Below, in pieces: positions 1,577-17,083 of a DNA stretch of 18,933 nt. Both the position numbers and the translations under genes were made by a program. The notes beneath the pieces are model-generated. The model was not told the origin of the DNA, searched no databases, and saw nothing but the letters and a program-made list of their open reading frames with translations. Source of the DNA: Archangiaceae bacterium (lineage in GTDB: Bacteria; Myxococcota; Myxococcia; Myxococcales; Myxococcaceae); contig JAYVCD010000452.1 in assembly GCA_043750125.1 (NCBI GenBank), positions 1-18,933 of the forward strand, read 5' to 3'. Every line of letters begins with the position of its first letter. Position 1 is the stretch's first letter.

Positions 1577-1672
1577 TCAGGGACAAGCCCGCAGCGCGAC
1601 CATCACCCACCCGCCGAAGAAACAGCTGAGGAAGAAGAAGACGACGCCCGCGATGATCCAGCCCTTGCTCAC
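1577..1672 (-). CDS. Small single-pass membrane peptide, 31 aa (MSKGWIIAGVVFFFLSCFFGGWVMVALRACP)
   Basis: The GTG start overlaps the methyltransferase stop (GTGA, 1669-1672). Most codons end in G/C and there is one continuous hydrophobic stretch. It is below the ORF-track size cutoff. Confidence 0.6.
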   Translation of the reverse strand: MSKGWIIAGVVFFFLSCFFGGWVMVALRACP

Positions 1673-2547
1673 ACCGCGATGTGGCGCAGCTTCATCTGAA
1701 CGTCAGAAGACCAGTGGTTGGCAAACGCGCGCACGCAAGTCGACAGGTAGCGCTCGTAGTTGTTCCACACCGTCTGCCCATCGCTCATCTTCGTCGCGCC
1801 CCACTTCTCTTTGATCTTCTTCTCGTTGAGGCGCAGGCGGCGCAGCCATTCGGCAGTGGTCTTCCCGTAGTCCTCGCGGCGGGTCTTGAGCTCGATGATT
1901 TCCCAGCTCTGTCCGCAGGCGGTGACCAGCTCTTCGAGCCGGGGGTTGAGGCCGCCGGGGAAGATCACGTCGGCGGTGAACTTCAGATCTTCGAGATCCT
2001 TTCGGGTGCGCGGAACGCGGTTGCGCAAGATGGCCTGAAAGCCGAAGCAGGCGCCGGGCTTCACCCAGCTCGCGAGCTTGTTGAAGTACTCGCGGTAGAT
2101 AGGCACCGACAGACCTTCTTGCTGCTGCTTCGGCGAGACGAGGTGGTCGATCATCTCGATCGACACCAGCGCGTCGTACTTCTCGGCCGGCGCGTAATCC
2201 TTGTAGTCGACGCACCAGGTGGTGACGCCCGGCAGCTTCCGGGTGGTGAGCTCGTCATGCTGGGCGCGCGAGAGCGTGATCCCGTGCGAGCGCTTCACCT
2301 TCTTGTCCAGCGCGAGGTACTCGAGGTTCGCGCCCCAGCCGCAGCCGACATCGAGCACCAGCGAATCGGCGGTCACCTCGGCGAAGTCGGCGAGGATCCG
2401 GCTCTTGTTCACCTGCGCCTGCTCGAGCGTGGTGTTCTTTTCGTCGTAGACGGCCGACGTGTAGTGCATGCGCTCGTCGAGCCAGAGGCGAAAAAACTCG
2501 TTCGAGATGTCGTAGCCGACTTCGACTTCTTCACGGGTGGAGGTCAT
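1669..2547 (-). CDS. SAM-dependent lipid methyltransferase, CMAS/Cfa family
   Basis: YDISNEFFRLWLD, SAM motif VLDVGCGWG, GITLSRAQ, IFPGG and DYGKTTAEW are signature motifs of the cyclopropane synthase / mycolic acid methyltransferase family. Confidence 0.92.
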   Translation of the reverse strand: MTSTREEVEVGYDISNEFFRLWLDERMHYTSAVYDEKNTTLEQAQVNKSRILADFAEVTADSLVLDVGCGWGANLEYLALDKKVKRSHGITLSRAQHDELTTRKLPGVTTWCVDYKDYAPAEKYDALVSIEMIDHLVSPKQQQEGLSVPIYREYFNKLASWVKPGACFGFQAILRNRVPRTRKDLEDLKFTADVIFPGGLNPRLEELVTACGQSWEIIELKTRREDYGKTTAEWLRRLRLNEKKIKEKWGATKMSDGQTVWNNYERYLSTCVRAFANHWSSDVQMKLRHIAV

Positions 2548-2584
2548 GGGTTTGCCTTCTGTAAGAGGACTGCGTTGTTTCGAT

Positions 2585-5500
2585 TCAGGCGACGGCTTCC
2601 ATCTCGCGGGTCAGCCGCTTCAGCTCTGCCGAGACGATGTCGGCGGTTTTCTTCAGCTGCTCTTCGCTGTGCAGACTGCTGACGAAGAAACGAAGGCGCG
2701 CGAGGTGCTCTTCGACCGCAGGGTATAAAATCGGCTGCACGTTGATCCCCCGGTCTTTGAGCGCATCGGACAGCTGCAGGCAGAGCACCGAATTGCCGAC
2801 AATCGCCGGCACCACCGCCGAGTCTTTCGACAGCCCGGTATCGATGTCGCGTTCTTTGAGCAGCTTCAAGAACAGCTTGGCGTTGTTCTGCAGCCTCTTC
2901 ACCCGCTCGGGGTGGGCTTCGAGCTGACGAAGGGCCGCCAGCGCCGCCGCCGCATTCGGAGGGCTGATGCCTACCGAGTAGACGAAGCCGGGCGTGGTGT
3001 ACTTGAGGTACTCGACCAGCGCGGTGGTGCCGGCGATGTAGCCGCCGCAGCTGGCGAACGATTTGCTCAACGTCCCCATCCACAGGTCCACGTCGCTGCG
3101 GACAACGTCGTAGTACTCGCCGATGCCGTGGCCGGTCTTGCCGATGACTCCGGCCGAGTGGGCTTCGTCGACGAGCAGCAAGGCCTGGTGCTTCTTCTTC
3201 ACCGCGATGAACTTCGGCAAATCAGGAATGTCGCCGTCCATCGAGTAGGTGCCTTCGATGCAGACCAGCACCCGGCGGTAATGCGGTCGCAGCGAAGTGA
3301 GCGCGCGGTCGAGCGCCTCGAAGTCGTTGTGGGGGAAGGGCCGTCGCTTGGCACCGGACAAGCGGGCGCCTCCGATGATCGAGTCGTGCGCGAGGGCGTC
3401 GTGGAGAATCAAGTCTCCGGGCCCCACGATGTGGCCGATGACGGTGACGTTGGTCGCGTGACCCGAGACGAAGACCAGCGACGACTCGGTGCCGAAGAAG
3501 CGGGCCAGCTCTCTCTCGAGCTCGCCGGTCAGCGGCTTCTCACCCGAGGCCACACGGCTGGCCGAGACCGACGTTCCGTAGGTGTCGATCGCGGCTTTCG
3601 CGGCGGTCGAGACCACCGGGTCCCCCGAGTTGCCGACGTAGTTGTAGGACGAGAAGTTGATCATCGACTTCCCGTTCACCACCGTGGTGTCACCGCAGAT
3701 CGCCTCGTGAACGCTGAAGTACGGGTTCTTCAAGCCGAACGCGGCCGCCATCTCGATTCGCTCTTGAAGCTCGGTGTACTCGGGGAATTTGTCGAAGCGA
3801 TAAGTCGACTCGTCCGCCGCTCCCTCTCGACCCGGCGCCTCGGCCTCGGACGCTGCTGCTTCGGGGGCCTTCTTCGCGGCGGCCGCGGCGACGAACTGGG
3901 GATCGCGCTGCTTGAATTCGGCCTCGACCCCTTCCATCACCGCGAGCAGCTTCCCGCTCGAATCCGTCCACGAGAGGGTGCCGCGCATCAAATCGCCGGT
4001 CGCCGCCTCGAAGACCGCGGTGCACAGCACGGGCGCGGCGCCGAAGGGGTGCAGCTGGGTGAAGCGCTTGAAGCCCAGCGGAAAGCCGGCGCGCTGATGC
4101 TTGACCCACGCCCAATAGCCGGCGAGCTGGAAGCTCGAATCGAGCAACAGCGGGTCCACCGTCCACGCGCTGCGCAGCGGGTCTTTGACCCAGTCCGACG
4201 GACGGCAGCCCTTGACCCAGCCGCTGACGCCGGTCTCGGTGAGGCCTTCGATGCTGACGATTCCGCGCAGCCGCGGGCCGTGGAAGGTGAAGCCCGAGTA
4301 GAACTCTTCGAGCGACATCGGCAGCGAGTCGTACGCGGGAAGCTGCGGCACGGGCGGAAGCTCTTTCGCGTCGACCGCGGCGCGCACCAGACCCCGGTAG
4401 CTGTCGGTGCCGGCCTGCCGCAGCGTCACGCGCTGGCCTTCGGCGCTCTGGGCCACGTCGGCGGAAAGCCAGAGGGTGTCATTGACCAGCACCGGCTTGA
4501 GCAGCTTGAAATCTTCGATGCTGAAGCCTTCGGTTCCCCCTCGCGCGTCGAGCGCAGCGGCGGCGAGATGATCCACTGCGGCGGCCAGGGGCAGCACGCG
4601 CTGGCCGGCCATCTGGTGATCATCGAGATAGACGTGAGTCTTCGGTGAGACCGGGAACTTCGAGACGTGGTGGGCGGACGGCGCGGTGACTTCTCGGCCG
4701 ATCAACACTTCGCCGGTGCCGCGCTCGACCTCGGTGAGGAAGCTGGCCAACCCTTCTTCGTCGGTGAGAAAGGTGACGCCCTGCTCGATCATTTCGCGCT
4801 TTTTGAACCCGGGGATCCGCTGCGCCATCGCGCTGTCTTCCCAGGGCGGAAAGTCGATCGTCACGCACCGTACGGAAGGCCGCGTGCGTTGCGAGAGTGC
4901 GGCGAGCATCGCGTTGGCCGACGCGTAGTCGGTCTGACCGGCGTTGCCGAAGCGTCCAGCCCAGGATCCCACTCCGACGAACAGCTTCAGCGCCGAGGTG
5001 GCGTCGAGCAGCGCGATCGCTCCGCCCACTTTGGGCTCGAGCACGGCGTCGAGTCCGGCGGCGTCTTTCTTCGCCACCAGCGAATCGGCGATCACCCCGG
5101 CCGCATGCACGATGGCGTCGATTTTCCCGAAGGCCGCTTTGACCGCGGCGACGCCGTCGTTCACGCTCTTCGTCGAGCGCGCGTCGAGCACCTGATAGCT
5201 GCACTCGCGCGCCCCGTCGCTCTTCACCGACGCGCACGCTTTGAGCGTCTCGTCGCTTGCCGCCGAACGACCCGCGAGCACGATGGCGCAGTGGTATTTC
5301 GAGCCGAGCGCGCGGGCAAATTTCAGCCCCAGGCCCCTGGCTCCACCGGTGACGAGCACGACCGATTGGGCATCGAGCGCCGCCGCGACGGGGCCGGACG
5401 CCCGAGCTTCCTTCAGCTCGGACGTGACCCGGCCGCCGCTCGAGTAGCCGACCTCGACCCGGCGATCGGCCGACACCAGCTCATCGAACAACGCCTGCGC

Positions 5501-8500
5501 GATCGCTTCGGCGCCCAGCGCGAGCTCAACGTCGATCGCCTTGACCACCGCGTCCGGCCATTCCTGCGCCAGGGCCCGGGTGAAGGCCAGCGCTCCGACC
5601 TGGCCCAGCGCTTCGCGTCCTCCGCCGGCCGACGACAGCCGGCCGCCCAGTGCCGCGACGGTGAGGAACAGCCGGGCCTCGGGGCCGACCTTGTTCGCCA
5701 TCGCCAATACCCGCCGGGTCGCGACGCGGTAATCGTTGTCGCGCGGCGTGAGGTCGGCGAGGTGAATGACGCCTGCGAAGCTTCCTGCGGTGGTCGCATC
5801 GCCAAGCACCGCTTCGATTCCGCGTGCGGTCAATCGGGTGGCGAGCGCCTTGCCGACCCCGTGGGCATCGACGGTGATCAACACCGGACGATCAAATGAG
5901 AGAACCGACTCGCGCAGGGGACGCAGCGGAGCGGCCAGCGCGACCGGCACGTAGCGCGAAATGGGAGCCGTTGACTTGCTGTCCACCGTCAGCTCGGTCG
6001 GCTTGGCGAGCGCGCCGACGATGTGGTTGATGACCGCGGCGATGGTGGTGGTCTTGTTGAACAGCTCTCGCGGCAGACCGCCCAGCTTCGGCCAGGCCTT
6101 CGCCACATCGCCGTCGAGCTCGACCAGCATCAACGAGTCGAAGCCGAGCTCACCGGTGAGCGCCTGTTCCATCTTCAGTGCGGCTGCGGGGAACGCGCTG
6201 ATCCGCGCGACGGACGCGAGGATCTTCGCTTCGACCTGGGGGCGAACGTCTTCGACGACCGGCGGCCGCGGCTCTTTTGGCGCCACCATGTTCGAGAAGT
6301 TCGGCGGCTTGATCGCCACCGGCAGCTTCTGCGCGGCCGCGAGCGAGGCGGCGGCTCCGGGGTTTCCACTGGCGACGGCCTGCAGCGCCGCGGCCTGGGC
6401 CTTGAGGATTTCTCCTTGCTGGGTCAGCAAAGCCATCTGCTCGCGGAAGAGGCTGACGAGGGAATCCATGGGTGCTCCGGTCTTGGTGGCCGAAAAGGAA
6501 GAGGGGCGTGCGGAAGGGGCACTGGGTCGGGCGGGAGCCACGGTGCGTGGCGCTCGCTGAGCCGGGCGTTCGATGCCCCAATAGGTTTGAGTCTCGAGGG
6601 GAGAAGGCGGCAACATCACCAGTCGGGCGTCGCTGCCCTCGAGCAGCGCTGCAGCGTTGAGCGGAACTCCACGGACCCACAGCTGCGCCAGGGTGGTGAG
6701 CAGCTGCGCCCCCCCATCGCCTCCCTCGGCTGAACCCAAAGAGAAGAACGCGCTGTCTTTTCCGGCCGCGCCGCGGGCGAAGGACAGCAGCGTGTTTCCC
6801 GCGCCCACCTGGATGAACAGCTTGCAGCCCTGAGCGACAACGGTCTCGAGCGCCGAGACGAAGTCGACCGGAGCGGTCGCGTGATCCACCCAGATGTCTC
6901 GCGCCTCGTCGACCGAGGTGTACAGGCCCCCTGAGATGCACGAGGCGATCGCCGTTGCCGGGGGCGAGAGCACGAGCCGCGCGACGATGCGGCGCATTCC
7001 GTCGTCGACGCCTTCCATCAGCGGCGAATGAAAAGCGTGCGAGACCTCGAGCTGCGCGGTCTTGAGCCCGTTGGCCTCGAGCTTCTTTTTCGCCGCCGCG
7101 ATCGACGCGGTGTGGCCCGAGAGCACCAGCTGGGTCGGGTGGTTGTGATTGGCCAGCCAGACATTGTTCAGGCCCGCGAGTAGCGGTTCGACCAGCGTGC
7201 GCTCGGCCATCACTGCGAGCATCGCGCCCGGATCTTTGAGGCCGAGCTTGTTCATCAGCTGGCCCCGGCGCGCCACCAACCGCACTGCGTCCTCGGCGGG
7301 CAGCATTCCGGCGACGGAGGACGCGACGAATTCTCCGAGGCTGTGGCCCAGGACCACGGTCGGCTCGACCCCCAATTCCTTGAGCCACTGTCCCAGCGCG
7401 AGGCCGAGCGCGGCCATCGCCGGCTGACAGACTTCGGTGCGGGTCAGCAGCGCCTGCGCTTCGACTTCGTCGTACGGCTCGGCGGGGTACAGCGCGGCGA
7501 GCAGGGAAGCGCCGGCGTCATGTTGCACCGCTCCGTCCAGCGACTTGAGCCGCCGAGCGACCGCGGGGAAGCGCGAGACGACATCGCGCAGCAACCCCAC
7601 CCGCTGGGCGCCCTGGCCGGGAAAGAGGAACGCGACCTGCCGCGCCGAGGCGTCGAGCACGGTGCCGAATGTGCCAGAGTCTTCACCTTTGACGAAGGCC
7701 TCGAGCCGCTCGATGAGTTGGGCGCGACCCTGGGCCACGATCGCCAACCGGACATCGAAGCTCTGCCTCTGGGCGAGGGTGAGCGCCACGTCCGCACACG
7801 AGAGCTGAAGGGTCGCAATCTGCTCGGCCACTTCGGCGGCGTAGGTCCGCAGCAGATCCTCGTTGGCCGCAGAGAAACAGAACAGCTGGGGGTGCTCGAC
7901 TTCGGAAGAGCTGACGGGCGGCGCCTCTTCGAGCAGCACGTGGGCGTTGGTTCCTCCGAACCCGAAGCTCGATACTGCCGCGCGCCGCGGATGCTTTGGG
8001 CTCGCCTTCCAGTCGAGCTCGGACTGCGCGATCTGAAAGGGTGAGCTCTCGAGCTCGAGCGAGGGGTTGAGCTCTTCACAGGAAGGCTGGGGAGGAATCG
8101 TGCGGTGGTGGAGCACGAGCGCGGCCTTGATGAAGCCTGCGACGCCCGCGGCCGACATGGTGTGGCCGATGTTGGCCTTGATGCTCGAGAGGTAGCAGTA
8201 CGGCTCATCGAGCGGGGTTTTGGCGCGGGCCTGAAAGAAGGACTTCAGCGCGCCGACTTCGGTCGCATCGCCGACGGTGGTGGCAGTGCCGTGGGTCTCG
8301 ACGAAGCCGATCGTCTCGACCGGGAAATCGAGGTCGCGGTGCGCGCGGCCCATGGCGGCGATCTGCCCTTCGGCGCGCGGGGTCATCGGGCCATCGCCGC
8401 GCCCGTCGTTGTTGCAGCCGCTGCCCTTGATCACGGCCCAGATGCGATCGCCATCGCGGCGCGCGTCTTCGAGCTTCTTCAGCATCACCATCCCCACGCC

Positions 8501-9301
8501 TTCGCCCATCACGAACCCGTCGGCGCGGGCGTCGAAGGGACGGCAGACGCCGGACGGAGAGATGGCTCCGATGCGGGAGAAGCCGATGAGGTTGTCGGGC
8601 TGCAGGTTCAGGTAAACCCCGCCGGCGAAGGCGACGCTGCACTGTCCCGCGCGCAGGTTGATCACCGCTTCGTGAATCGCGACCAACGCCGAGCTGCAGG
8701 CCGCGTCCATCGACCAGCTGGGGCCGCCGAGATCGAAGGTCTGCGAGATGCTGGCCGCCCCCATGTTCAGCAGCGAGCCGGCGATCGAGAAGGCGCGCAT
8801 CGGGACCACGTCGGCCACCGAGGCCCTCAAGGCTTCGGCTTCAGAGGTGGACAACTTGTCGCCGAACTGTCCGTCGATGGTCTGCTGGGCGCGCACCCGC
8901 GAGATGAGCAGGTCCTTGTGCTCGGAGACCGACGCCCCGACGAAGACGCCGGCGTTGGCGCGGTCGAAGCTCTTCCCGTCGTAGCCCGCGTCCTGAATCG
9001 CCTGCCGCACCGCTTCGATCAACAGCCGATGTTGGGGGTCCATCACCTGTACCCGCCGCGGAGCGAGCCCGTAGTGAAGCGCGGCGAACTCTTTGTAGCC
9101 CTCGACGAAGGCGCCCTTGCGCACGTACGTCTTGTCGGCCGCCCGCAAGTCGGTCGCGTCGAAGAAGCTGGCGTGGTTCCAGCGCTCTTCCGGAATGTCC
9201 TCGAAGGTCACTTCCCCGGTGCGGACGACGCGCCAGAGCGCACTGAGGTCTTTGGCGTGGGGAAACTTGCACGCCATTCCGATGACGGCGATGTCGCTCA
9301 T
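2585..9301 (-). CDS. Type I PKS (KS-AT-ACP-KR-DH) fused to a C-terminal PLP-dependent alpha-oxoamine synthase (serine palmitoyltransferase/AONS family)
   Basis: KS: DAACSS, HGTAT, NIGHT. AT: GHSLG and HAFHS (malonyl type). ACP: LGFDSL. KR: VTGGARGLG, DYASAN. DH: HQMAGQRVLP and DSSFQ. AOS: NFSSYNYVG, DALAHDS, YSMDGD, DEAHS, GTLSKSFA (PLP lysine). Confidence 0.95.
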   Translation of the reverse strand: MSDIAVIGMACKFPHAKDLSALWRVVRTGEVTFEDIPEERWNHASFFDATDLRAADKTYVRKGAFVEGYKEFAALHYGLAPRRVQVMDPQHRLLIEAVRQAIQDAGYDGKSFDRANAGVFVGASVSEHKDLLISRVRAQQTIDGQFGDKLSTSEAEALRASVADVVPMRAFSIAGSLLNMGAASISQTFDLGGPSWSMDAACSSALVAIHEAVINLRAGQCSVAFAGGVYLNLQPDNLIGFSRIGAISPSGVCRPFDARADGFVMGEGVGMVMLKKLEDARRDGDRIWAVIKGSGCNNDGRGDGPMTPRAEGQIAAMGRAHRDLDFPVETIGFVETHGTATTVGDATEVGALKSFFQARAKTPLDEPYCYLSSIKANIGHTMSAAGVAGFIKAALVLHHRTIPPQPSCEELNPSLELESSPFQIAQSELDWKASPKHPRRAAVSSFGFGGTNAHVLLEEAPPVSSSEVEHPQLFCFSAANEDLLRTYAAEVAEQIATLQLSCADVALTLAQRQSFDVRLAIVAQGRAQLIERLEAFVKGEDSGTFGTVLDASARQVAFLFPGQGAQRVGLLRDVVSRFPAVARRLKSLDGAVQHDAGASLLAALYPAEPYDEVEAQALLTRTEVCQPAMAALGLALGQWLKELGVEPTVVLGHSLGEFVASSVAGMLPAEDAVRLVARRGQLMNKLGLKDPGAMLAVMAERTLVEPLLAGLNNVWLANHNHPTQLVLSGHTASIAAAKKKLEANGLKTAQLEVSHAFHSPLMEGVDDGMRRIVARLVLSPPATAIASCISGGLYTSVDEARDIWVDHATAPVDFVSALETVVAQGCKLFIQVGAGNTLLSFARGAAGKDSAFFSLGSAEGGDGGAQLLTTLAQLWVRGVPLNAAALLEGSDARLVMLPPSPLETQTYWGIERPAQRAPRTVAPARPSAPSARPSSFSATKTGAPMDSLVSLFREQMALLTQQGEILKAQAAALQAVASGNPGAAASLAAAQKLPVAIKPPNFSNMVAPKEPRPPVVEDVRPQVEAKILASVARISAFPAAALKMEQALTGELGFDSLMLVELDGDVAKAWPKLGGLPRELFNKTTTIAAVINHIVGALAKPTELTVDSKSTAPISRYVPVALAAPLRPLRESVLSFDRPVLITVDAHGVGKALATRLTARGIEAVLGDATTAGSFAGVIHLADLTPRDNDYRVATRRVLAMANKVGPEARLFLTVAALGGRLSSAGGGREALGQVGALAFTRALAQEWPDAVVKAIDVELALGAEAIAQALFDELVSADRRVEVGYSSGGRVTSELKEARASGPVAAALDAQSVVLVTGGARGLGLKFARALGSKYHCAIVLAGRSAASDETLKACASVKSDGARECSYQVLDARSTKSVNDGVAAVKAAFGKIDAIVHAAGVIADSLVAKKDAAGLDAVLEPKVGGAIALLDATSALKLFVGVGSWAGRFGNAGQTDYASANAMLAALSQRTRPSVRCVTIDFPPWEDSAMAQRIPGFKKREMIEQGVTFLTDEEGLASFLTEVERGTGEVLIGREVTAPSAHHVSKFPVSPKTHVYLDDHQMAGQRVLPLAAAVDHLAAAALDARGGTEGFSIEDFKLLKPVLVNDTLWLSADVAQSAEGQRVTLRQAGTDSYRGLVRAAVDAKELPPVPQLPAYDSLPMSLEEFYSGFTFHGPRLRGIVSIEGLTETGVSGWVKGCRPSDWVKDPLRSAWTVDPLLLDSSFQLAGYWAWVKHQRAGFPLGFKRFTQLHPFGAAPVLCTAVFEAATGDLMRGTLSWTDSSGKLLAVMEGVEAEFKQRDPQFVAAAAAKKAPEAAASEAEAPGREGAADESTYRFDKFPEYTELQERIEMAAAFGLKNPYFSVHEAICGDTTVVNGKSMINFSSYNYVGNSGDPVVSTAAKAAIDTYGTSVSASRVASGEKPLTGELERELARFFGTESSLVFVSGHATNVTVIGHIVGPGDLILHDALAHDSIIGGARLSGAKRRPFPHNDFEALDRALTSLRPHYRRVLVCIEGTYSMDGDIPDLPKFIAVKKKHQALLLVDEAHSAGVIGKTGHGIGEYYDVVRSDVDLWMGTLSKSFASCGGYIAGTTALVEYLKYTTPGFVYSVGISPPNAAAALAALRQLEAHPERVKRLQNNAKLFLKLLKERDIDTGLSKDSAVVPAIVGNSVLCLQLSDALKDRGINVQPILYPAVEEHLARLRFFVSSLHSEEQLKKTADIVSAELKRLTREMEAVA

Positions 9302-10143
9302 GCGTTGAGGATCACGGCGGAAGCCGGGGGCGTCACCGCTGCTTCCGCGACCTTGAGCTTGTCCTTCCAGACGCGGGGCAGGTCGTGGCGCGAGATCTTG
9401 AGCGCCTTGAAGATCGGGCCCCAGACCTCAGAGAGGAACACTCCGCGGTCGATGCCGGCGGTGCGCATCACCTCGACGCGTGACTCGTAGTCGGGGATCA
9501 GCTCGAACGCGGGCATGGTGAAACCGTAGAAGACCGTGGCGATGTCCTTGAGCGTCCCCTCGCGGTCGTCATCGAGAAAGTGTCCGAGGACGATTTCGTA
9601 ATACCGCGCGTGCGCCATTTCGTCTTTGGCGATCAGCTTGTAGATCGACGCCAGCGCGGGCTGGTTCTCGGCCTCGCACAGCGCCTGCTGCTTCTTGTAG
9701 ATGATGAAGGTCGTCATCTCTTGCACCGCGCCGTAGGCGGTCATCTGCCGGCCGGTGTCGAACGGTCGCTTCCATTCCTGCTTCAAGATCCGCTCTTCGT
9801 AATCGAACATCTGATCTTCGGTGCGGTGTCCGCTGCGCACGAGGAACTCGCGCAGCGACAGGGCGTGCTTGCTCTCTTCGTAGCCCCAGTTCACCGCGAA
9901 CCAGCTGCGCGCGAAGTTGTCGCGAAACAGATCGAGGTGCCCTTTGACGTAGTCGGGCAGGTACATCTCGACGCCGCAGAACGTCTCGGTGCACAGCGCC
10001 AGCTTGTCGTTGCGCGGAGCGTTTTTCGCCGCTTCCCAGTCGATGTCGGTGAACGGGTTCCAGCGGCGGGCCCGTTCGGCGTGCTCGAAGAACGTCATGT
10101 ACTCGCGGTGAAACTTTTCGCGCAGGGCTTTCGAGGCGGTCAT
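9298..10143 (-). CDS. Soluble acyl-ACP desaturase (ferritin-like di-iron family)
   Basis: Di-iron motifs WGYEESKH, VQEMTT and KDEMAH match the EExxH / QE / DExxH pattern; FTMP occurs near the C-terminus. The stop overlaps the PKS start (ATGA). Confidence 0.88.
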   Translation of the reverse strand: MTASKALREKFHREYMTFFEHAERARRWNPFTDIDWEAAKNAPRNDKLALCTETFCGVEMYLPDYVKGHLDLFRDNFARSWFAVNWGYEESKHALSLREFLVRSGHRTEDQMFDYEERILKQEWKRPFDTGRQMTAYGAVQEMTTFIIYKKQQALCEAENQPALASIYKLIAKDEMAHARYYEIVLGHFLDDDREGTLKDIATVFYGFTMPAFELIPDYESRVEVMRTAGIDRGVFLSEVWGPIFKALKISRHDLPRVWKDKLKVAEAAVTPPASAVILNA

Positions 10144-10160
10144 GGGGGCGACTCCCGTTT

Positions 10161-10424
10161 TCAGGCGGCGACTTCAGTTCCGGCGGGCACCAGGCGTTTG
10201 ACCAGCGAGGCCAGGTCTCCCAGCGTCTGGACCTTCGCGAGGTCCTCGTCGGGCATCCGGATGTTGAGCTTCTCTTCGAAATAGCTGACCAATTCCATCA
10301 CCGCGACCGAGTCGAGGCCGAGCTTGGAAATCACCGTGTCGCTGGTGAGCTCACCGAGCTTCTTCCCGTTCACTTCGAGGGCCGCCTGCTGAAACATCTG
10401 AAGAACGTTCACCGTCTGCGCCAT
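10161..10424 (-). CDS. Stand-alone acyl carrier protein
   Basis: 87 aa with the phosphopantetheine site LGLDSV and the ACP-like helix pattern ELVSYFEEKLNIRMPDEDL. Confidence 0.95.
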   Translation of the reverse strand: MAQTVNVLQMFQQAALEVNGKKLGELTSDTVISKLGLDSVAVMELVSYFEEKLNIRMPDEDLAKVQTLGDLASLVKRLVPAGTEVAA

Positions 10425-10453
10425 GGGGGTCTGTGTTCCTGTGAATGAAGAAA

Positions 10454-12337
10454 TTAGAAAAACCTGCCGACCAGCGAACGCGCGTAACGACCGGCGAGGC
10501 CGAGCTTGAGGACGGCGTCGGCGGTGGTGCGGATTTCCAGCGCGTGCCGAAGGACTTTTCTCGCCCGGTGCCGGCTGCGGCCGACCAGCGAGAGCGCGAC
10601 GTGCTTGGCGAGCACCGCTTTCTGGGACTTCCCGAGCGAGCGGCTGCCTTCCTTGCCCAGCGTCTTGTCGAGGTACTGCAGCCGGGTCTTGGCGCGCTGC
10701 AGCTTTCCGCTCGAGGTCTTCGGCAGGCTGCCGGGCGCCGCGATCACCACTTCATTCACCGCCAGCTGCAGCAGCTCGCTCATCCGCTGCTTCACCGTTT
10801 CTTTGAGCTTCTCGGGGTCCTGGGTGCGCGACTCGACCGCGACGATCAGCTCTTCGCTGTTGGCGCCGGGAATCGAGAAAGCCACGGTGCTGCCCTTGCG
10901 GACTTCAGGCACTTCGTCGGCAATCCACTCGATGCGCTGCGGTTCCCAATTGCGGCCGTTGATGATGATCAGGTCCTTCTTTCGACCGGTGATGTAGACG
11001 TTTCCGCTGACGAGGTAGCCCAGGTCTCCGGTGCGCAGCCAGCCGCCGCCGAACGTCTTCTCGGTCGCGGCGGGGTCACGGAAGTACCCCTTGGCGATCG
11101 ACGGGCCCTTGACCCACAGCTCGCCGACCCGGCGGTCTTTGAGCCGCTTCCCGTCGTCATCGAACACTGCGACTTCGTGACCCGGGAAGGTCTTGCCGAC
11201 GCTGACGAACTCGACCGCGGTTTGCGATTTGAGCGAATCGACGTGGGCCGGCTCGGCGCGGCGATCGGTCTGAAGGGGATCTTTTTCGACCACGTCGGTC
11301 GACAAATCTTCGGTCAGCGGAATGAAGGAAATCGCCAGCGTCGCTTCGGCCATTCCGTAGCAGGGCAGCAGCGACGACGGTTTGAGGCCGGCTTTCGAGA
11401 AAGTCTCGACGAACGCCTTCATCGTCGCGGGGTTGATCGGCTCGGCTCCGCAGCCGAAGGCTTTCATCGACGAGAGGTCCCAGCGGGCGAGGGCTTCGGG
11501 CTTGGCGCGCTTGGTCGCCAGCGCGTAGGCGAAGTTCGGAGCGAAGCTGATCGTCCCCCGCTTCTTGCTGATCGTATCGAGCCAGATGGTCGCGTTGCGC
11601 ACGAAGGCCATCGTCGGAATGAAGGTGCAGGCGATGCGGTGAAACAGCGGGGCGATGACGAAGCCGATCAGCCCCATGTCGTGGTACAGCGGGAGCCAAC
11701 TGACGCCGTGGTCTACGTCGGTGTCGGTGTTGAGCCCGTCGCGCATGATCGCCCACGCATTGGCGCGAAGCGAGCCGTGGGTGACTTCGACACCTTTGGG
11801 AGCCGAGGTGCTGCCGGACGTGAATTGCAAGAACGCCAGGTCTTCGGCAGTGACGGTCGCGGGCCGCTGATCCGCGTCGGCCGGAGGGTCGGTGCGCAGC
11901 GTCTCGGCGGTGATGACGCCCTGAAGGGATTTCACTTTCGCCGCGCCGCTCCACAGCACCGACTCGAGCTTGGCGTTGGTGGCCAGGTAGGTCGGCTCGG
12001 CCTTGGTCATGATCGAGACCAGCGCCTCGATGTAGGCGTCGAGCTTGCCCAGGGACAGCGGAGGGTAGAGAGGAACCGGTACGATTCCGGCCCACACCGC
12101 TCCGAAAAATGTCGGCACGAAGTCCTCGCCGTCGGGCATCACCATCGCCAGGCGGTCGCCTTTCTTCATTCCCTTGCTGCGCAGCCAGGCGCCCCGTCGC
12201 ATCGCCTCAGTCCGAAGCGCATCAAACGAGTAGTGAACGTCGGAGCCTTCCCGGCCCAAAAACGTGAAGCCCTTCTCAGTGAGACCCTGGTTGGCGTCCA
12301 GCGCTGCGATCAAGGTGGGGAAGTCGAAGATCTCCAT
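10454..12337 (-). CDS. Fatty acyl-AMP ligase (FAAL; acyl-ACP synthetase)
   Basis: LQFTSGSTSAPKGV, SWLPLYHDMGL, PCYGMAEATL followed by the FAAL-type insertion, WLRTGDLG and PKTSSGK. I place the start at Met50 of the track ORF (12337) because the upstream in-frame part is AT-rich and looks non-coding. Confidence 0.92.
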   Translation of the reverse strand: MEIFDFPTLIAALDANQGLTEKGFTFLGREGSDVHYSFDALRTEAMRRGAWLRSKGMKKGDRLAMVMPDGEDFVPTFFGAVWAGIVPVPLYPPLSLGKLDAYIEALVSIMTKAEPTYLATNAKLESVLWSGAAKVKSLQGVITAETLRTDPPADADQRPATVTAEDLAFLQFTSGSTSAPKGVEVTHGSLRANAWAIMRDGLNTDTDVDHGVSWLPLYHDMGLIGFVIAPLFHRIACTFIPTMAFVRNATIWLDTISKKRGTISFAPNFAYALATKRAKPEALARWDLSSMKAFGCGAEPINPATMKAFVETFSKAGLKPSSLLPCYGMAEATLAISFIPLTEDLSTDVVEKDPLQTDRRAEPAHVDSLKSQTAVEFVSVGKTFPGHEVAVFDDDGKRLKDRRVGELWVKGPSIAKGYFRDPAATEKTFGGGWLRTGDLGYLVSGNVYITGRKKDLIIINGRNWEPQRIEWIADEVPEVRKGSTVAFSIPGANSEELIVAVESRTQDPEKLKETVKQRMSELLQLAVNEVVIAAPGSLPKTSSGKLQRAKTRLQYLDKTLGKEGSRSLGKSQKAVLAKHVALSLVGRSRHRARKVLRHALEIRTTADAVLKLGLAGRYARSLVGRFF

Positions 12338-12429
12338 TTCGTGGGAATACGTTGGAAGGGGAAAAGGGGTCAACAGCGGACCTGCATCGCCCGAGGTCGC
12401 CGAAACGGGTGCGAAGCGAGGCACAGGAC

Positions 12430-12457
12430 AAAATAGTAAGTATTGGCAGTATGTTAA
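12430..12457 (-). promoter_or_regulatory. Candidate sigma70-type promoter for the FAAL-PKS operon
   Basis: TTAACA-N16-TATTTT on the minus strand, inside the AT-rich divergent intergenic region 12338-12679. Weak match. Confidence 0.3.
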
Positions 12458-12642
12458 AGTCGAATATCGCGCCTTATGACGCACGCAATACGCAGCACGG
12501 TGAGCCGATTGTTGCTCACAATAGCGAATCGGGTTCTGCCCCGTGCCTTGGGGCGTTTCCGGTTGGCCCGGTGCCCCTTTCGAACCCTGAATTCAACTTA
12601 CTGTATTTGTTCAACTTTAAAGTGCGCATAAAACTGCTCAGT

Positions 12643-12671
12643 TTGACACCCTTGGAGCGCTTCCCTACAAG
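12643..12671 (+). promoter_or_regulatory. sigma70-type promoter, probably giving a leaderless transcript
   Basis: Perfect TTGACA (12643-12648), 17-bp spacer, TACAAG (12666-12671). The ATG at 12680 follows after 8 nt with no Shine-Dalgarno sequence. Confidence 0.65.
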
Positions 12672-12679
12672 GCCGCGCA

Positions 12680-13876
12680 ATGCAAACCGAGCCGACCGGA
12701 GCTTCCGTGATCTCTCCCCCTCCGTCTGACGTGGTGATCAGCCGGGTCGAGACCGCCGAACAGAAGAAGCAGTTCATCCTCTTCCAGTACGAGGTCTACA
12801 AGAACGACCCGCACTTCGTCCCGCCGCTGCTGATGGATCGCGAGATGTTCTTCAACGAGAAGAAGAACCCGTGGTTCGAGTTCGGAAAAACGGATCTGTT
12901 TCTCGCGCGCCGCAACGGGAAGATCGTCGGCCGGGTCGCAGCGATCGAAGACCCCCGCTACAACGATTTTCACCAGACGAAGATCGGCTGGTTCGGAATG
13001 TTCGAATGCATCGATGACGTGGCGGTGGCCCGGGCCCTGCTGCAGACCTGCGAAGTCTGGGTCCAGGCACGCGGGCTGACCCAGATGCTCGGGCCGGCCA
13101 ACTTCTCCAGCAACAGTGAGTGGAGCACGCTGATTGACGGCTTCGACGCCGACGCGGTGCTGATGACCACCTACAACCCGAAGTACTACCCGGCGCTGAT
13201 CGAAGCGTGCGGGTACACCAAGGCGAAGGACCTGTGGGCGTTCTGGCTCGACTTGAAGACCCCTCCGCCCGAGCGGGTGGCGCGCATCGCCGAGAAGGTC
13301 CGCGCCCGGGAAGGAATCGTCATTCGCAAAGCGAACATGAAGGACTGGGACAACGAGGTGCGGAAGATCAAAGAGATCTACAACGCGGCCTGGGAAAAGA
13401 ACTGGGGCTTCGTGCCGATGACCGATCGCGAATTCGATCACCTCGCGAAGGACCTGAAGATGATCCTCATTCCCGAATTGACGCTGCTCGCCGAAGTGAA
13501 AGGGGAGGCGGTGGCCTTCGCGATCACGCTCCCCGACGCGAACCAGGCGATCAAGCTCGCCAACGGGAAGCTGACCACCTTCGGCCTGCCGATTGGCCTG
13601 GCGAAGATGCTGCTGAAGCTCAAGAAGATCAAAACCGGGCGGCTGGCGATCCTGGGAATCAAGACCGGCTTTCGCAAACGCGGCCTCGACTCGGTGCTGA
13701 TGCTCGACACCTTCCTCGCGGCCCAGAAGCTCGGCTGGACCGGGGGCGAAATCTCCTGGACCCTCGAAGACAATTCTCTCGTCAACCGCGCGATCGAGAT
13801 CTTCGGCGCCAAGAAGTACAAAACGTACCGGGTGTACGGCAAGCCGCTGGTCGCGCAGGTCGCGCTCAAAAACTGA
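12680..13876 (+). CDS. GNAT-fold N-acyltransferase, YghO / bacterial ceramide synthase (bCerS)-like, copy 1
   Basis: VGRVAAI, GWFGMFECIDD, GPANFSSN, LIDGFD, YNPKYY, KAKDLWA, IYNAAWEKNWGFVP, FRKRGLD and EISWTLEDN follow the motif series of this family. Confidence 0.85.
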   Translation: MQTEPTGASVISPPPSDVVISRVETAEQKKQFILFQYEVYKNDPHFVPPLLMDREMFFNEKKNPWFEFGKTDLFLARRNGKIVGRVAAIEDPRYNDFHQTKIGWFGMFECIDDVAVARALLQTCEVWVQARGLTQMLGPANFSSNSEWSTLIDGFDADAVLMTTYNPKYYPALIEACGYTKAKDLWAFWLDLKTPPPERVARIAEKVRAREGIVIRKANMKDWDNEVRKIKEIYNAAWEKNWGFVPMTDREFDHLAKDLKMILIPELTLLAEVKGEAVAFAITLPDANQAIKLANGKLTTFGLPIGLAKMLLKLKKIKTGRLAILGIKTGFRKRGLDSVLMLDTFLAAQKLGWTGGEISWTLEDNSLVNRAIEIFGAKKYKTYRVYGKPLVAQVALKN

Positions 13877-15066
13877 TGGCCGTCGCAGCGAAGCGGGGGA
13901 CGGACGCGCCGCCGCGGTATGCGGTGCGGGCCCCGGACGTGACCATCGAAGAAGTGGTCAATGCGCATCAGCGCGACGAGTTTTCGCGCTTTCCCCTCGA
14001 GCTCTACGCGGGCGACACCCGGTTCGTCCCTCCGATCGTGGCCGAGCGGCGCGAGTTCATCGACCCGACGATCAACCCCTTCTTCCAGCACGCCCGGGGA
14101 GCCTTCTTTCTCGCGCGCCGCAACGGGAAGGTCGTCGGTCGAATCGCAGCGGTGAACGATTCCCGGTACAACAATTTCCACGACAGCGACGTGGGCTTCT
14201 TCGGAATGTTCGAGTCGCTCAATGATCCAGGAATCGCCGCGGCGCTGTTCGAGACCGCCGCCCGGTGGATTCGTCTCAGTGGGCCGCAGATGATGATCGG
14301 CCCGCTCAACCTTTCCTTCCATCACGACATCGGCTGCCTGGTCGACGGGTTCGACCGTTCGCCCTCGATGATGATGCCGTACAACCCGCGCTACTACGCG
14401 AAGCTGTTCGAGGTGAACGGCTTCACCAAGTGCAAGGACCTCTGGAGCTACGAGCTGCTCGCCAGTGAGCCGCTGCCCGAGAAGGTCGCCCGCTTCGCCG
14501 AGCGGGTGCGCACCGCGGGCGGAATCACCATTCGTCGCATCGACCTTCGAGACGAAACGAACGAACGGCGGCGAATCAAGAACATCTACGACTCGATGCT
14601 CAAGCCCGGGTGGGGGTTTGCTCCGATTTCCGACGTCGAGTTCGACGCGGCGGTCAGTCGCCTGCGGCCGTTGATCGCGCTGCGGCCCGAGCTGTGCCTG
14701 GTCGCGGAAGCCAATGGAGAAGCGGTCGGCTTCGGGATTACCGTCCCGGACACCAACCTCGCGCAGAAGACCACCGGCGGGTATTTGTCGCGCTTTGGAC
14801 TTCCCGTCGGGCTGGCCAAGATGCTCTGGGCGGCGCGGAAGATCGACCGGCTGCGGGTGCTGATGTTCGGAATCAAGCAGGGCTGGCGACGGCGGGGAAT
14901 CGACGCGCTGCTCGCCGTTGAGACGATGCAGCAGGCGCGGAAGCTGGGTTACGTCGCGGGCGAGTTGGGGTGGGCGGCGGAAGACGACAAGCTGATCAAC
15001 CGCACCATCCAGGCCACCGGCGCCCGGCGGATCAAGACGTACCGGATTTTCGAGCGCGCGATCTGA
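13876..15066 (+). CDS. GNAT-fold N-acyltransferase, YghO / bCerS-like, copy 2 (396 aa)
   Basis: Collinear with copy 1 (VGRIAAV, GFFGMFES, YNPRYY, KCKDLWSY, WGFAP, WRRRGID). The likely start is ATG 13876, overlapping the upstream stop (TGATG), rather than 13207. Confidence 0.85.
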   Translation: MAVAAKRGTDAPPRYAVRAPDVTIEEVVNAHQRDEFSRFPLELYAGDTRFVPPIVAERREFIDPTINPFFQHARGAFFLARRNGKVVGRIAAVNDSRYNNFHDSDVGFFGMFESLNDPGIAAALFETAARWIRLSGPQMMIGPLNLSFHHDIGCLVDGFDRSPSMMMPYNPRYYAKLFEVNGFTKCKDLWSYELLASEPLPEKVARFAERVRTAGGITIRRIDLRDETNERRRIKNIYDSMLKPGWGFAPISDVEFDAAVSRLRPLIALRPELCLVAEANGEAVGFGITVPDTNLAQKTTGGYLSRFGLPVGLAKMLWAARKIDRLRVLMFGIKQGWRRRGIDALLAVETMQQARKLGYVAGELGWAAEDDKLINRTIQATGARRIKTYRIFERAI

Positions 15067-15086: not shown

Positions 15087-16043
15087 GTGAATTCCCCTAC
15101 CGAGCGTCGCATCGCCCTCTTCATCGACTTCGAGAACCTCGTCACCAACACGGGGATCACCGCCTCGAATTTTGATCTGCAGCCCGCGCTCGATCGCCTG
15201 CTCGAAAAGGGAAAGGTCATCTTCCGTCGGGCGTACTGCGACTGGTCGCGCTTCAAGGACGCCAAGAGCCACCTGCACGAGTTCGGCGTCGAGCTGGTCG
15301 ATGTGCCGCCGTCGACGCGCGCCGGAAAGAACAGCGCCGACATGCGGCTGGTGATCGACGCGCTCGAGCTTTGTTACGCCCGCGAGCACATCAACACCTT
15401 CGTCATCGCCTCGGGGGACAGCGACTTCTGCCCCCTGGCCTACAAGCTGCGCGAGAACGACCGGTTCGTGATTGGGCTCGCGGTGAAGGAAGCCACCTCG
15501 CCCTTCTTCGTCAAAGCCTGCGACGAGTTCATCTACTTGCGAGGGCAGGGAAGGGGCGAAGAGCGCAGCAGCGCGCGACCGGCCTCGAGTCGAACCAGCA
15601 GCAGCAGCGGCAGTCGGCCGGATGCCCGGCACGGCCCCGCCTCGTCCTCGGGCGAATCGGCTTCGAAGAAGCCCCGCGCGGTGCCTGAGATCGCCCGCGA
15701 AGTGGTCTCGAGCCTGCTTTCGCGCGCCACTGGCCCCGTCAACCCGTCCTTGATCAAAGAGACCATCGTCCGCAAGCAGCCCGACTTCGACGAGCGGGAC
15801 CACGGCTTCTCGACCTTCTCGCGGATGCTCGAGGCGATGGAGAAAGAAGGGCTGCTCAAACGCCAGCAGCAAGGCCGCCAGTGGTACGTGGTCGCGGTGG
15901 GCGAAGGCCTTGCCGAGCCGAAGGCGGGCAGCGAGGGTGAGCATGATCGCCACCTGCCTGCAGAACCGCACGACGTTCACGAGCACCACGAGCCGGAAGA
16001 AGAGTCGATTCCGGATCCGGAAGACGACGACCTCGCGCTTTAA
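15087..16043 (+). CDS. NYN (LabA/DUF88, PIN-like) domain protein with C-terminal LOTUS/OST-HTH domain
   Basis: IALFIDFEN, RAYCDW, KNSADMRLVIDA, SGDSDF and ACDEFIY; a Ser-rich linker; then PDFDERDHGFSTFSRMLE. Confidence 0.92.
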   Translation: MNSPTERRIALFIDFENLVTNTGITASNFDLQPALDRLLEKGKVIFRRAYCDWSRFKDAKSHLHEFGVELVDVPPSTRAGKNSADMRLVIDALELCYAREHINTFVIASGDSDFCPLAYKLRENDRFVIGLAVKEATSPFFVKACDEFIYLRGQGRGEERSSARPASSRTSSSSGSRPDARHGPASSSGESASKKPRAVPEIAREVVSSLLSRATGPVNPSLIKETIVRKQPDFDERDHGFSTFSRMLEAMEKEGLLKRQQQGRQWYVVAVGEGLAEPKAGSEGEHDRHLPAEPHDVHEHHEPEEESIPDPEDDDLAL

Positions 16044-16159
16044 GTCGAACCCGCCGTGCCTTCCGGTTTCCGCCGGCGCCTCTCGATTCACCGGGCGACG
16101 AGAACGGGCTTCTTACAGATGTGAACGGGCCGCTCGGCGATCGAGCACCATTTCTGCCC

Positions 16160-16606
16160 TCAGCGGCTTGGGCGATCTCGCCAGACCAAGACCGGACAAG
16201 CCGCGTGCTGCACCACCTGTTGGCTGACCGAGCCGAGCAACAGGCGTCGAGCGATCCCCAGGCCGCGCGCTCCAAGAACGATCAGGTCGACGGCATTGTG
16301 CTCGGCCCAGGTGCAGATCGTCTCACTCACCGGGCCCAGCTCGACGGCGTGGCTCACCTTGACCGTCGAGTGCTCAGCGGCGATCTCCGTGAAGAGCGTT
16401 TTGATCTTTTCGATGTCTTCGTCCGACCTCGGCAGGCTCAGCGGCAGATAGCCAGACAGGGGGCCCAGCGGAATCATCTCGACGGGCGGCAACACCGACA
16501 GCAGTGTGACTTTGGCGTTGGCCTGGGCCGCGAGCGCCAGCCCATACCGCGCGGCGTGTCTGGAAGGCACCGAGCCGTCCACCGCGATGGCGATGTGGTG
16601 GATCAT
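16160..16606 (-). CDS. Universal stress protein (UspA family)
   Basis: IAIAVDGS, DLIVLGARG and LLGSVSQQVVQHAACPVLV. Confidence 0.95.
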   Translation of the reverse strand: MIHHIAIAVDGSVPSRHAARYGLALAAQANAKVTLLSVLPPVEMIPLGPLSGYLPLSLPRSDEDIEKIKTLFTEIAAEHSTVKVSHAVELGPVSETICTWAEHNAVDLIVLGARGLGIARRLLLGSVSQQVVQHAACPVLVWRDRPSR

Positions 16607-16646
16607 GAGCCGTTGCCCCAGGCGCTCAGTCGTCGGGTGCGAACCT

Positions 16647-16811
16647 TCATCGCGGGCTCACTGCCGCCGGAAGCTGCTTCTGCCTGCTCCGGTATGGGCG
16701 GTGCTCCACTGCTGGGGCCGCGGTGCTGAGGACGAGCACTCCGCCGCCGCTCGCCAGCTCGAGACAGCCACTGCCTGGCTCGGGCTCCTTGACTGCTTCG
16801 ACTTCGATCAT
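16647..16811 (-). CDS. Small hypothetical ORF (54 aa), possibly a gene remnant or leader
   Basis: Strong SD GAGGAGGT just before ATG 16811, downstream of a sigma54-like promoter. No recognisable domain. Confidence 0.4.
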   Translation of the reverse strand: MIEVEAVKEPEPGSGCLELASGGGVLVLSTAAPAVEHRPYRSRQKQLPAAVSPR

Positions 16812-16856
16812 GGGTACCTCCTCTTTGAAGCATGGTTGGCGTGCGGCGCAGGCGAA

Positions 16857-16873
16857 TGCAAAGCGAGGGCCGG
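16857..16873 (-). promoter_or_regulatory. sigma54-type promoter towards the USP gene
   Basis: Minus strand CCGGCCCTCGCTTTGCA has GG-N10-GC spacing with TTGCA at -12. Confidence 0.55.
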
Positions 16874-16940
16874 AACTCGCGCGAAGCCAGGACGCCGCGG
16901 CCGGACCCCGAGAGCTGCGGTTGCTGCGTCGCCTTCGCGT

Positions 16941-16959
16941 AGGTGCAGCGTCTGCACCT
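16941..16959. promoter_or_regulatory. Inverted repeat AGGTGCAG-N3-CTGCACCT, candidate enhancer-binding-protein site
   Basis: Perfect 8-bp arms, lying between two divergent sigma54-like promoters. Confidence 0.5.
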
Positions 16960-17010
16960 TCAACTCGGTCTCTGCTCGCGCAGCTCTCCGAGCATTCCAA
17001 TTGGCAAGCA

Positions 17011-17027
17011 CTGGCGCATGAGATGCA
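17011..17027 (+). promoter_or_regulatory. sigma54-type promoter towards the hemerythrin-domain gene
   Basis: CTGGCGCATGAGATGCA: GG (17013-14), N10, GC (17025-26), close to the consensus TGGCAC-N5-TTGCA. Confidence 0.6.
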
Positions 17028-17083
17028 CCCAGCCTGTGAGCCGCATCTGCCGATGGTGCGGGGCGAAGGTCACCCAAGGATTC

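Follow-up and report, generated by a model that had tools for sequence, protein, structure and literature searches.

A polyketide synthase fused to a serine palmitoyltransferase-like domain lies beside ceramide synthase-type genes in Myxococcota and seems to mark a route to modified sphingolipids

We analyzed a stretch of 18,933 nucleotides from an Archangiaceae bacterium, referred to as the window, which is the entire contig JAYVCD010000452.1 (C452) of the metagenome-assembled genome (MAG) GCA_043750125.1. This MAG (6.17 Mb in 460 contigs, 89.4% complete) carries the label G000; G, L, C and f labels denote the sampled genomes, loci, contigs and taxonomic families of the comparison described below. 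The subject of this work is a locus built around a type I polyketide synthase (PKS) with a C-terminal α-oxoamine synthase (AOS) domain. Six open reading frames (ORFs) are tightly packed on the minus strand in the order fatty acyl-AMP ligase (FAAL), acyl carrier protein (ACP), desaturase-like protein, PKS-AOS, CMAS-family methyltransferase and a 31-aa ORF. Two genes for GNAT-type N-acyltransferases, GNAT1 and GNAT2, overlap each other by 1 nt on the plus strand and are divergent from the FAAL operon. The features of the locus are as follows:

1577..1672, minus strand: hydrophobic ORF of 31 aa that overlaps the CMAS stop, doubtful as a gene
1669..2547, minus strand: CMAS-family S-adenosylmethionine-dependent methyltransferase of the short type found among mycolic-acid methyltransferases (PF02353, 166.2 bits against a cut-off of 27, E 1e-48)
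2585..9301, minus strand: type I PKS of 2238 aa with the PfaA-like order KS-AT-ACP-KR-DH and a C-terminal AOS (Pfam, NCBIfam)
9298..10143, minus strand: acyl-ACP desaturase-family diiron-carboxylate protein, DesA2-like (PF03405, 54.2 bits against a cut-off of 22.7)
10161..10424, minus strand: stand-alone ACP, AcpR-like (PF00550, E 1e-11)
10454..12337, minus strand, with the frame open to a GTG at 12484: FAAL, an AasR-like fatty acyl-AMP ligase (PF00501, E 9e-63)
12338..12679, no strand assigned: divergent intergenic region between FAAL and GNAT1, inspected as sequence
12680..13876, plus strand: GNAT1, YghO/bCerS-family N-acyltransferase of 398 aa (full-length YghO homology)
13876..15066, plus strand: GNAT2, paralogous YghO/bCerS-family N-acyltransferase of 396 aa (full-length YghO homology)

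All of the main genes that the original prediction had named from the sequence (FAAL, ACP, desaturase, PKS-AOS, CMAS and two GNATs) were recovered with their families. Its description of a tight or overlapping operon lying back-to-back with the two GNATs also holds: the spacers are 29 nt (FAAL/ACP), 17 nt (ACP/desaturase-like gene) and 37 nt (PKS/CMAS), and the desaturase-like gene and PKS, as well as CMAS and the 31-aa ORF, overlap by 4 nt. The GC content at third codon positions (GC3) is 0.82-0.89 in all main ORFs of the locus and each has conserved orthologues, which places them far beyond chance; the protein relatives carry the names of Myxococcaceae, Archangium or Myxococcota MAGs.

The central protein of the locus matches Pfam families for ketosynthase (KS), acyltransferase (AT), ketoreductase (KR) and dehydratase (DH) domains and for Aminotran_1_2. 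Its domains, all on the minus strand, were delimited as follows:

8078..9298: KS, aa 2-408 (PF00109, PF02801; Cys-His-His triad conserved)
6785..7630: AT, aa 558-839 (PF00698, E 1e-41; GHSLGE and HAFH motifs)
6017..6226: internal ACP, about aa 1026-1095 (PF00550 below threshold, 14.9 bits, E 0.033)
4835..5362: KR, aa 1314-1489 (PF08659, E 2e-30; glycine-rich NADP motif and catalytic Tyr conserved)
3923..4705: PKS-type DH, aa 1533-1793 (PF21089, PF14765; HxxxGxxxxP conserved)
2639..3667: AOS, Spt-like, aa 1879-2221 (PF00155, E 6e-50)

The catalytic motifs of all PKS domains and of the AOS are kept in 15 orthologues, the exception being L057, which has no AT, and the attachment motif of the internal ACP, serine included, is the same in every one of the 15 aligned orthologues. 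The AT motif HAFH is one that we take to indicate malonyl specificity. Against the PfaA model (TIGR02813) the PKS scored 602 bits, below the cut-off of 1010; it has the PfaA-like domain order with a single ACP. At least 1667 fused PKS-AOS protein clusters are present in public metagenome data, under generic names only.

Several observations point to serine palmitoyltransferase (Spt) as the nearest relative of the AOS domain. The domain has the AOS fold, and its pyridoxal phosphate (PLP) lysine, His and DxxH residues are conserved in the 15 orthologues and align with those of Spt, BioF and Kbl. It is 34% identical to E. coli Spt (E 7e-58), and among PDB structures serine palmitoyltransferases match it best (E 3.5e-63), KBL being nearly level (5e-60). 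In a phylogenetic tree, the fused AOS domains (those of PKS-AOS proteins, of FAAL-AOS proteins from small genomes and of a few others) formed one clade with support of 100/100, whose internal order largely follows taxonomic family. This clade grouped with all GNAT-linked Spt proteins and apart from the BioF and Kbl of G000 with support of 98/92, a placement judged against these two outgroup sequences only.

A census of the AOS family in G000 found four members. One is BioF (447 bits against a cut-off of 426), encoded in a bioB-bioF-bioA operon, and another is Kbl (649 bits, above its curated cut-off), encoded beside Tdh. The third is the PKS domain, and the fourth is an Spt-like paralogue at the end of contig C256 (L007, 10516-11793, plus strand) whose frame is open but in which PLP lysine and active-site histidines are gone. 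The C256 paralogue was rejected as a true Spt on account of these losses, which leaves the PKS domain as the sole intact candidate for Spt in G000. The best match to Myxococcus Spt was likewise the PKS-AOS domain itself in all five PKS-bearing genomes tested.

The C256 paralogue has syntenic counterparts, with the same residues lost, in G177 (C200) and G142 (C59), and in the tree the proteins of this type occupy very long branches beside the Myxococcus/E. coli Spt group (95/82). They evolve fast, with about 40% identity between genomes whose neighboring genes share 64-70%. Their neighbors are an L3-like gene and a 597-aa ORF, and in G000 the paralogue faces a gene for an FA_hydroxylase fused to a short-chain dehydrogenase/reductase (SDR). 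We considered whether the gene marks the former position of an Spt operon and found no support for this, as it has no neighbors in common with the Spt operons that PKS-less genomes carry. In the loss of the lysine the paralogue resembles LCB1, the lysine-less subunit of SPT in eukaryotes.

Each of the two GNATs aligns from end to end with YghO of E. coli BL21, GNAT1 with 33% identity (E 4e-68) and GNAT2 with 29% (E 7e-56), and the two are 46% identical to each other. YghO found only GNAT1 and GNAT2 in G000, and GNAT1 found only yghO in the BL21 chromosome, so these full-length reciprocal best hits bear out the YghO/bCerS-like identity that had been proposed for the pair. The family model PF00583 (cut-off 20.7) gave 25.2 bits for GNAT2 and 19.6 bits for GNAT1; neither protein had an NCBIfam match or a PDB sequence match. 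The gene yghO (ECD_02850) is the counterpart of the N-acyltransferase gene aca/CC_1154, one of five genes (aasR, acpR, spt, epi/cerR and aca/bCerS) that make up the ceramide cluster in Caulobacter crescentus and E. coli BL21 (PMC9386255).

The genomic context of the GNAT orthologues was examined in eight relatives that lack the PKS. GNAT1 orthologues, 57-61% identical, directly follow Spt, and GNAT2 orthologues follow CerR in the Spt-GNAT1-CerR-GNAT2 operons of G080, G114 and G162. The order Spt-GNAT-CerR occurs in G118, G175 and G043, and in G030 a GNAT-CerR pair and Spt are about 1.9 kb apart. Linkage with both Spt and CerR was thus found in seven of the eight genomes, the eighth (G156) having no CerR nearby. 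The presence of the orthologues in Spt/CerR operons of PKS-less Myxococcaceae indicates that the GNAT is the ceramide-synthase partner of Spt in Myxococcota. The window GNATs are accordingly predicted to be YghO/bCerS-family ceramide synthases, with N-acylation suggested by their homology.

The genes upstream of the PKS resemble a known loading system. The FAAL is 35% identical to AasR of E. coli BL21 (E 1e-113) and is the best AasR match in G000 (340 bits), ahead of three further FAALs at 250-286 bits; it scored 534 bits on the model NF006624 'fatty acyl-AMP ligase', under the cut-off of 600. Its start is likely the ATG at 12337, because the AasR alignment begins at M50 and relatives match from that residue. 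The ACP gave a weak match to AcpR (33% identity over 57 aa, E 3e-7). In homology and gene adjacency, FAAL and ACP correspond to the AasR/AcpR loading pair.

The next gene encodes a protein placed in the acyl-ACP desaturase family by its PF03405 score and by two ExxH motifs in the alignment, for which desaturase activity is predicted. Its sole PDB match is M. tuberculosis DesA2 (1za0, E 2.9e-7), and it is single-copy in G000. The CMAS protein scores well above the gathering cut-off of its family, and its nearest PDB structures are UmaA and MmaA1 (E about 1e-21; 2.5e-21). In mycolic acid synthesis, DesA-type desaturases and CMAS-family methyltransferases tailor ACP-bound chains. DesA2 and UmaA/MmaA1 are the nearest solved relatives of the two window proteins, but they are distant ones, and both organism and pathway differ. 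The small membrane peptide that the original prediction had counted as part of the system was rejected: an ORF resembling it follows CMAS in only one of 24 related loci (L085), so that the 31-aa ORF is not established as a gene.

To place the locus in its phylum, we compared 201 Myxococcota genomes (200 sampled plus G000, with the unpublished G196 entering the tallies only) using four queries, with cut-offs of E<=1e-40 for the YghO-type GNAT and E<=1e-90 for the Myxococcus-type Spt. A fused PKS-AOS in a large open frame was found in 37 genomes of eight families, 35 of which have the orthologous FAAL. The FAAL adjoins the PKS upstream in 18 of 20 fetched loci, 17 of which also hold the ACP. The desaturase-like gene is present in 7/20 distant and 2/16 close loci, and CMAS in 7/20 distant loci and, following the PKS, in all 21 assessable close loci. 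The two genes come and go independently, which suggests that they are accessory tailoring genes. One side observation concerns the place that the desaturase-like gene occupies: in L050 of G189 (7509-9259, family f5) ACP and PKS are about 1.7 kb apart, with unidentified sequence in the place that is elsewhere filled by the desaturase-like gene or left empty.

The YghO-type GNAT occurs in 113 of the 201 genomes. Among these, 31 carry PKS-AOS only, 62 the Myxococcus-type Spt only, two both and 18 neither; 14 of the 18 belong to family f10, and another type of Spt adjoins the GNAT in all three f10 genomes checked. PKS-AOS and stand-alone Spt are therefore almost mutually exclusive among GNAT-bearing genomes, in support of the predicted replacement of Spt by a PKS-Spt megasynthase. 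The six genomes of the window's own family that bear the PKS and lack Spt, G000 included, all carry GNATs. In family f12 (Polyangia-like), Spt was found in 0/20 genomes, the GNAT in 20/20 and PKS-AOS in 19/20, and six f12 genomes that were examined pair CerR with the GNAT, with no AOS closer than about 9 kb.

The arrangement of GNAT and operon was compared as well. The GNAT is divergent from FAAL in all 13 close-relative loci with at least 1.5 kb of sequence upstream of FAAL; these come from uncultured 'Archangium-like' MAGs that are species-level relatives, two of the loci being contigs of G142 and G177. Adjacency was also seen in G055 and, in another family, in the distant G005. The operon is retained in genomes of only 2.1-2.7 Mb (G055 and G199). 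This retention, together with the family-wise inheritance seen in the tree, is more in keeping with a core lipid function than with a secondary-metabolite cluster of sporadic occurrence.

Taken together, these results suggest that PKS-AOS probably takes the place of Spt in these genomes and makes modified long-chain bases that would be N-acylated by the GNATs. The ceramide logic first proposed for the locus, with an acyl-ACP synthetase, an ACP, an AOS and bCerS, agrees with the data in that each of the asserted homologies to the E. coli BL21 cluster was found. We infer every chemical step of the route from homology and domain content, as follows. The AasR-like FAAL would adenylate a fatty acid and load it onto the AcpR-like ACP. 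The desaturase-like protein, where present, and CMAS could desaturate the chain and then add a methyl or cyclopropane group at some stage of the route. The PKS, as its domain set suggests, would extend the acyl chain with malonate at least once, reduce it and dehydrate it; since there is no enoylreductase domain, a 2-enoyl thioester would be left on the internal ACP. The AOS would condense this thioester with an amino acid, most likely serine, to give a 3-keto long-chain base that may be 4-unsaturated, and the two YghO/bCerS-type GNATs would N-acylate the long-chain base to yield ceramide precursors.

A number of results count against this assignment. The AOS scores under every curated SPT cut-off (NF047600, 287/640 bits; NF047599, 264/500; NF047603, 217/670) and scores slightly higher on the bioF model (326 bits against a cut-off of 426). 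The Myxococcus-type Spt also falls short of the SPT cut-off (506 against 640), although the SPT model is plainly the one that it matches best. E. coli Spt used as a query in G000 matches the PKS domain, Kbl and BioF with 177, 176 and 168 bits. With hidden Markov model and PDB scores near-equal for SPT, KBL and BioF, serine use by the AOS cannot be read from the sequence. Support is only 93/74 for the union of the fused clade with Myxococcus/E. coli Spt, in a tree rooted on two long-branch non-Spt references (BioF and Kbl) and including no ALAS or CqsA. Both Spt and PKS-AOS occur in G197 and G015, and no YghO-type GNAT reached the cut-off in four of the 37 genomes with PKS-AOS, which belong to families f27 and f29.

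Co-conservation of the GNATs with the operon, the lack of which had been named at the outset as a refuting result, gave a mixed picture: adjacency holds in all 13 assessable close relatives, was found in only 4 of 18 more distant loci and was absent from G136, the closest sampled genome, from G197 and from all seven f12 loci examined. Related genomes are moreover not independent, so that the counts overstate the number of events, and the 31 genomes with PKS-AOS only represent a handful of lineages rather than 31 events. Searches of the 89.4%-complete G000 with E. coli CerR and a CerR-like protein of G177 found no CerR orthologue, which leaves the 3-keto reductase unassigned. An SDR on contig C213 (7831-8829) was considered as CerR and rejected, being OleD-like and part of an oleBCD-like cluster. 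This cluster (L135, C213 7831-11371) comprises genes for an abhydrolase, an AMP-ligase and a 3beta-HSD-type SDR, and lies next to a phosphopantetheinyl transferase (PPTase) gene, with a FabA-like gene at the contig end.

The strongest competing explanation is that FAAL-ACP-PKS-AOS-CMAS makes a separate amino-lipid metabolite or signal, such as an amino-ketone or a sphinganine-analogue inhibitor, and that the GNATs are mere housekeeping ceramide-synthase neighbors. It draws on the failure of any curated model to assign the AOS to SPT, on the variation of the desaturase-like gene and CMAS from locus to locus in the manner of accessory genes of gene clusters, and on the four PKS-AOS genomes that lack the GNAT and the two that also have Spt. 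In addition, other PKS systems that end in or are partnered by an AOS, of the fumonisin and myriocin type, yield non-membrane products. It would, however, leave 31 of the 113 GNAT genomes, which lack a Myxococcus-type Spt and bear PKS-AOS, without a source of long-chain bases. The five such genomes tested have no AOS nearer to Spt than the PKS domain, and G000 has no other intact Spt candidate. The inheritance of the operon along family lines, its persistence in the 2.1-2.7 Mb genomes and the adjacency of the GNAT in 13/13 close relatives also count against it, and we regard the separate metabolite as unlikely.

A second alternative grants that PKS-AOS feeds the GNATs and proposes glycine or alanine as the amino acid, which would yield 1-deoxy or 1-desoxymethyl N-acyl amino-ketones or amino-alcohols in place of true sphingolipids. 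That the top model of the AOS is bioF, an alanine-using enzyme, and that KBL-type scores are close would fit such a substrate. Against this, the fused clade sits with GNAT-linked Spt and not with BioF/Kbl (98/92), PKS-AOS stands in for Spt in genomes that keep CerR-bCerS pairs, and SgaB, the AOS partner of a Pseudomonas PKS, is reported as strictly serine-specific in the available part of PMC12134224; we consider glycine or alanine use quite improbable. That a genuine stand-alone Spt is missing from the assembly and PKS-AOS is an extra, as the 89.4% completeness, the 460 contigs and the contig-end position of the dead paralogue might suggest, is very hard to reconcile with the absence of the Myxococcus-type Spt from G136, G142, G177 and G055, own-family genomes that bear the same operon and are 98-100% complete, and with the same dead paralogue at the syntenic place in G142 and G177.

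Beyond the replacement of Spt by PKS-AOS, a wider and more speculative proposal can be made, which we put forward tentatively and would not ourselves expect to hold in full. Across much of Myxococcota, a FAAL/ACP-primed, PfaA-like PKS with a terminal Spt domain might carry out the committed step of sphingolipid synthesis, joining a 2-enoyl thioester to serine. The PKS dehydratase would set the 4,5-double bond of a sphingosine-type base before condensation, without a delta-4 desaturase, methyl or cyclopropane marks would come from the optional desaturase and CMAS modules, and the ancestral free Spt would have been lost or have decayed to the lysine-less paralogue. The proposal takes in family f12, where it concerns 19 of the 20 genomes sampled, as well as several smaller families and the uncultured Archangium-like clade. 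A mark comparable to the proposed methyl or cyclopropane additions is carried by fungal 9-methyl-sphingadienine. The idea of a sphingolipid-dependent envelope lacking lipopolysaccharide was dropped because G000 has LpxC.

The locus can be compared with the ceramide gene cluster of Caulobacter and E. coli. In E. coli BL21 (L011), yghO is divergent from a FAAL-epimerase-ACP-spt operon, a layout like that of the window. Common to both are an AasR-like FAAL, an AcpR-like ACP, a Spt-like AOS and YghO-family acyltransferases. Unlike in that cluster, the AOS of the window is fused to a KS-AT-ACP-KR-DH PKS, so that chain extension and unsaturation would precede condensation; the window also has two GNATs and the added desaturase-like and CMAS genes, and CerR was not found in G000. 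Myxobacteria have aasR-acpR-like operons 'in different genomic contexts', a context left unspecified in the accessible part of PMC9386255.

The closest functional parallel is the SgaA/SgaB/SgaC system of Pseudomonas fluorescens MYb115, published in 2025, in which an iterative type I PKS works with a stand-alone AOS that has SPT activity, and with a KDS reductase, to produce C24-C28 sphinganines (PMC12134224). In both systems, compared here by description only, a PKS would supply the acyl thioester for a Spt-type condensation. PKS and AOS are separate there and fused in the window, and the consulted portion of PMC12134224 mentions no FAAL/ACP pair, bCerS-type GNAT, desaturase or CMAS for Sga. 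An SgaC-like KDS reductase was not identified for the window locus. Homologues of Sga are described mainly from Burkholderia and other host-associated bacteria, although the supplementary list of PMC12134224 may include myxobacteria. The PfaA proteins of polyunsaturated fatty acid synthases share with the window PKS the order KS-AT-ACP-KR-DH, with the ACP before the KR and a PKS-type DH; they differ in having tandem ACPs against the one ACP, and the window protein has a C-terminal AOS and no PfaB, PfaC or PfaD in the window. Fungal sphinganine analogues (fumonisin with FUM1/FUM8, sphingofungin and myriocin) are likewise made from a PKS chain and an amino acid joined by an AOS; as far as the accounts available go, these eukaryotic pathways use separate enzymes and yield toxins or inhibitors rather than membrane ceramides, with no link to bCerS.

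The view that the arrangement had not been characterized is in part upheld. Our full-text literature search, which covered neither the supplements of PMC9386255 nor those of PMC12134224, found no account of a myxobacterial PKS-AOS fusion, but a PKS-derived route to sphingolipids, that of SgaA/SgaB/SgaC, is in print. PKS-derived sphingolipids are thus already known, and the new elements here are the PKS-AOS fusion and its apparent link to ceramide synthase genes. On this basis the locus seems to point to an undescribed bacterial route to modified sphingolipids. If correct, it would be a second architecture for PKS-derived sphingolipids, the first to be tied to a bacterial ceramide synthase, and unsaturated or branched long-chain bases might then be made independently of a desaturase. 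Surveys of bacterial and metagenomic sphingolipid genes look for stand-alone Spt, bCerS and CerR (PMC11334938, from the part available). They may misjudge many Myxococcota if the PKS-fused AOS does the work of Spt in these lineages. Because PKS-AOS and Spt have complementary distributions, the idea lends itself to direct tests in cultured myxobacteria.

Other arrangements of AOS proteins were seen in the comparison. In family f16, whose genomes are 1-2.5 Mb, a single frame of about 1000-1090 aa joins FAAL to AOS without the PKS part, as in L128 (G054, 8001-10799) and L129 (G145, 7886-11053), and the AOS is 58-60% identical to the PKS-AOS domain; the YghO-type GNAT is absent from f16 genomes (0/21). 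A Myxococcus-like, Spt-bearing genome encodes a different AOS-containing PKS, in which two tandem AOS domains (L132, G090:C2, 9077-11497) come after KS and KR; they share 43% and 49% identity with the PKS-AOS domain. The Myxococcus-type Spt itself, of about 510 aa (L077, 10673-12208, minus strand, and its family f1 orthologues), ends in a conserved stretch of about 120 aa, a C-terminal extension without a Pfam match, and the full 512-aa query is covered in 47 family f1 genomes.

The surroundings of the operon were also inspected. A promoter scan of the divergent region 12338..12679 gave one sigma-70-like site (minus strand, 12457-12430) where 1.0 was expected, and a scan of the locus for promoters and terminators gave nothing above chance level. 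Similarity to the close relative L100 stops just past CMAS, at about position 1600. An Sfp-type PPTase gene sits past CMAS in L100 (12983-13729) and in several other relatives, where the window has the 31-aa ORF; another PPTase is encoded in G000 on contig C213 (7064-7762). Positions 1-1670 of the window contain two ORFs without a family match, 129-806 on the plus strand and 734-1510 on the minus strand, the latter with low GC3. Downstream of the GNATs (15087-18651) the genes look unrelated to lipid synthesis and encode an NYN/LOTUS protein (15087-16043, plus strand), a universal stress protein (16160-16606, minus strand), a hemerythrin-domain protein (16943-17563, plus strand) and a LEA_2 protein (17821-18651, minus strand).

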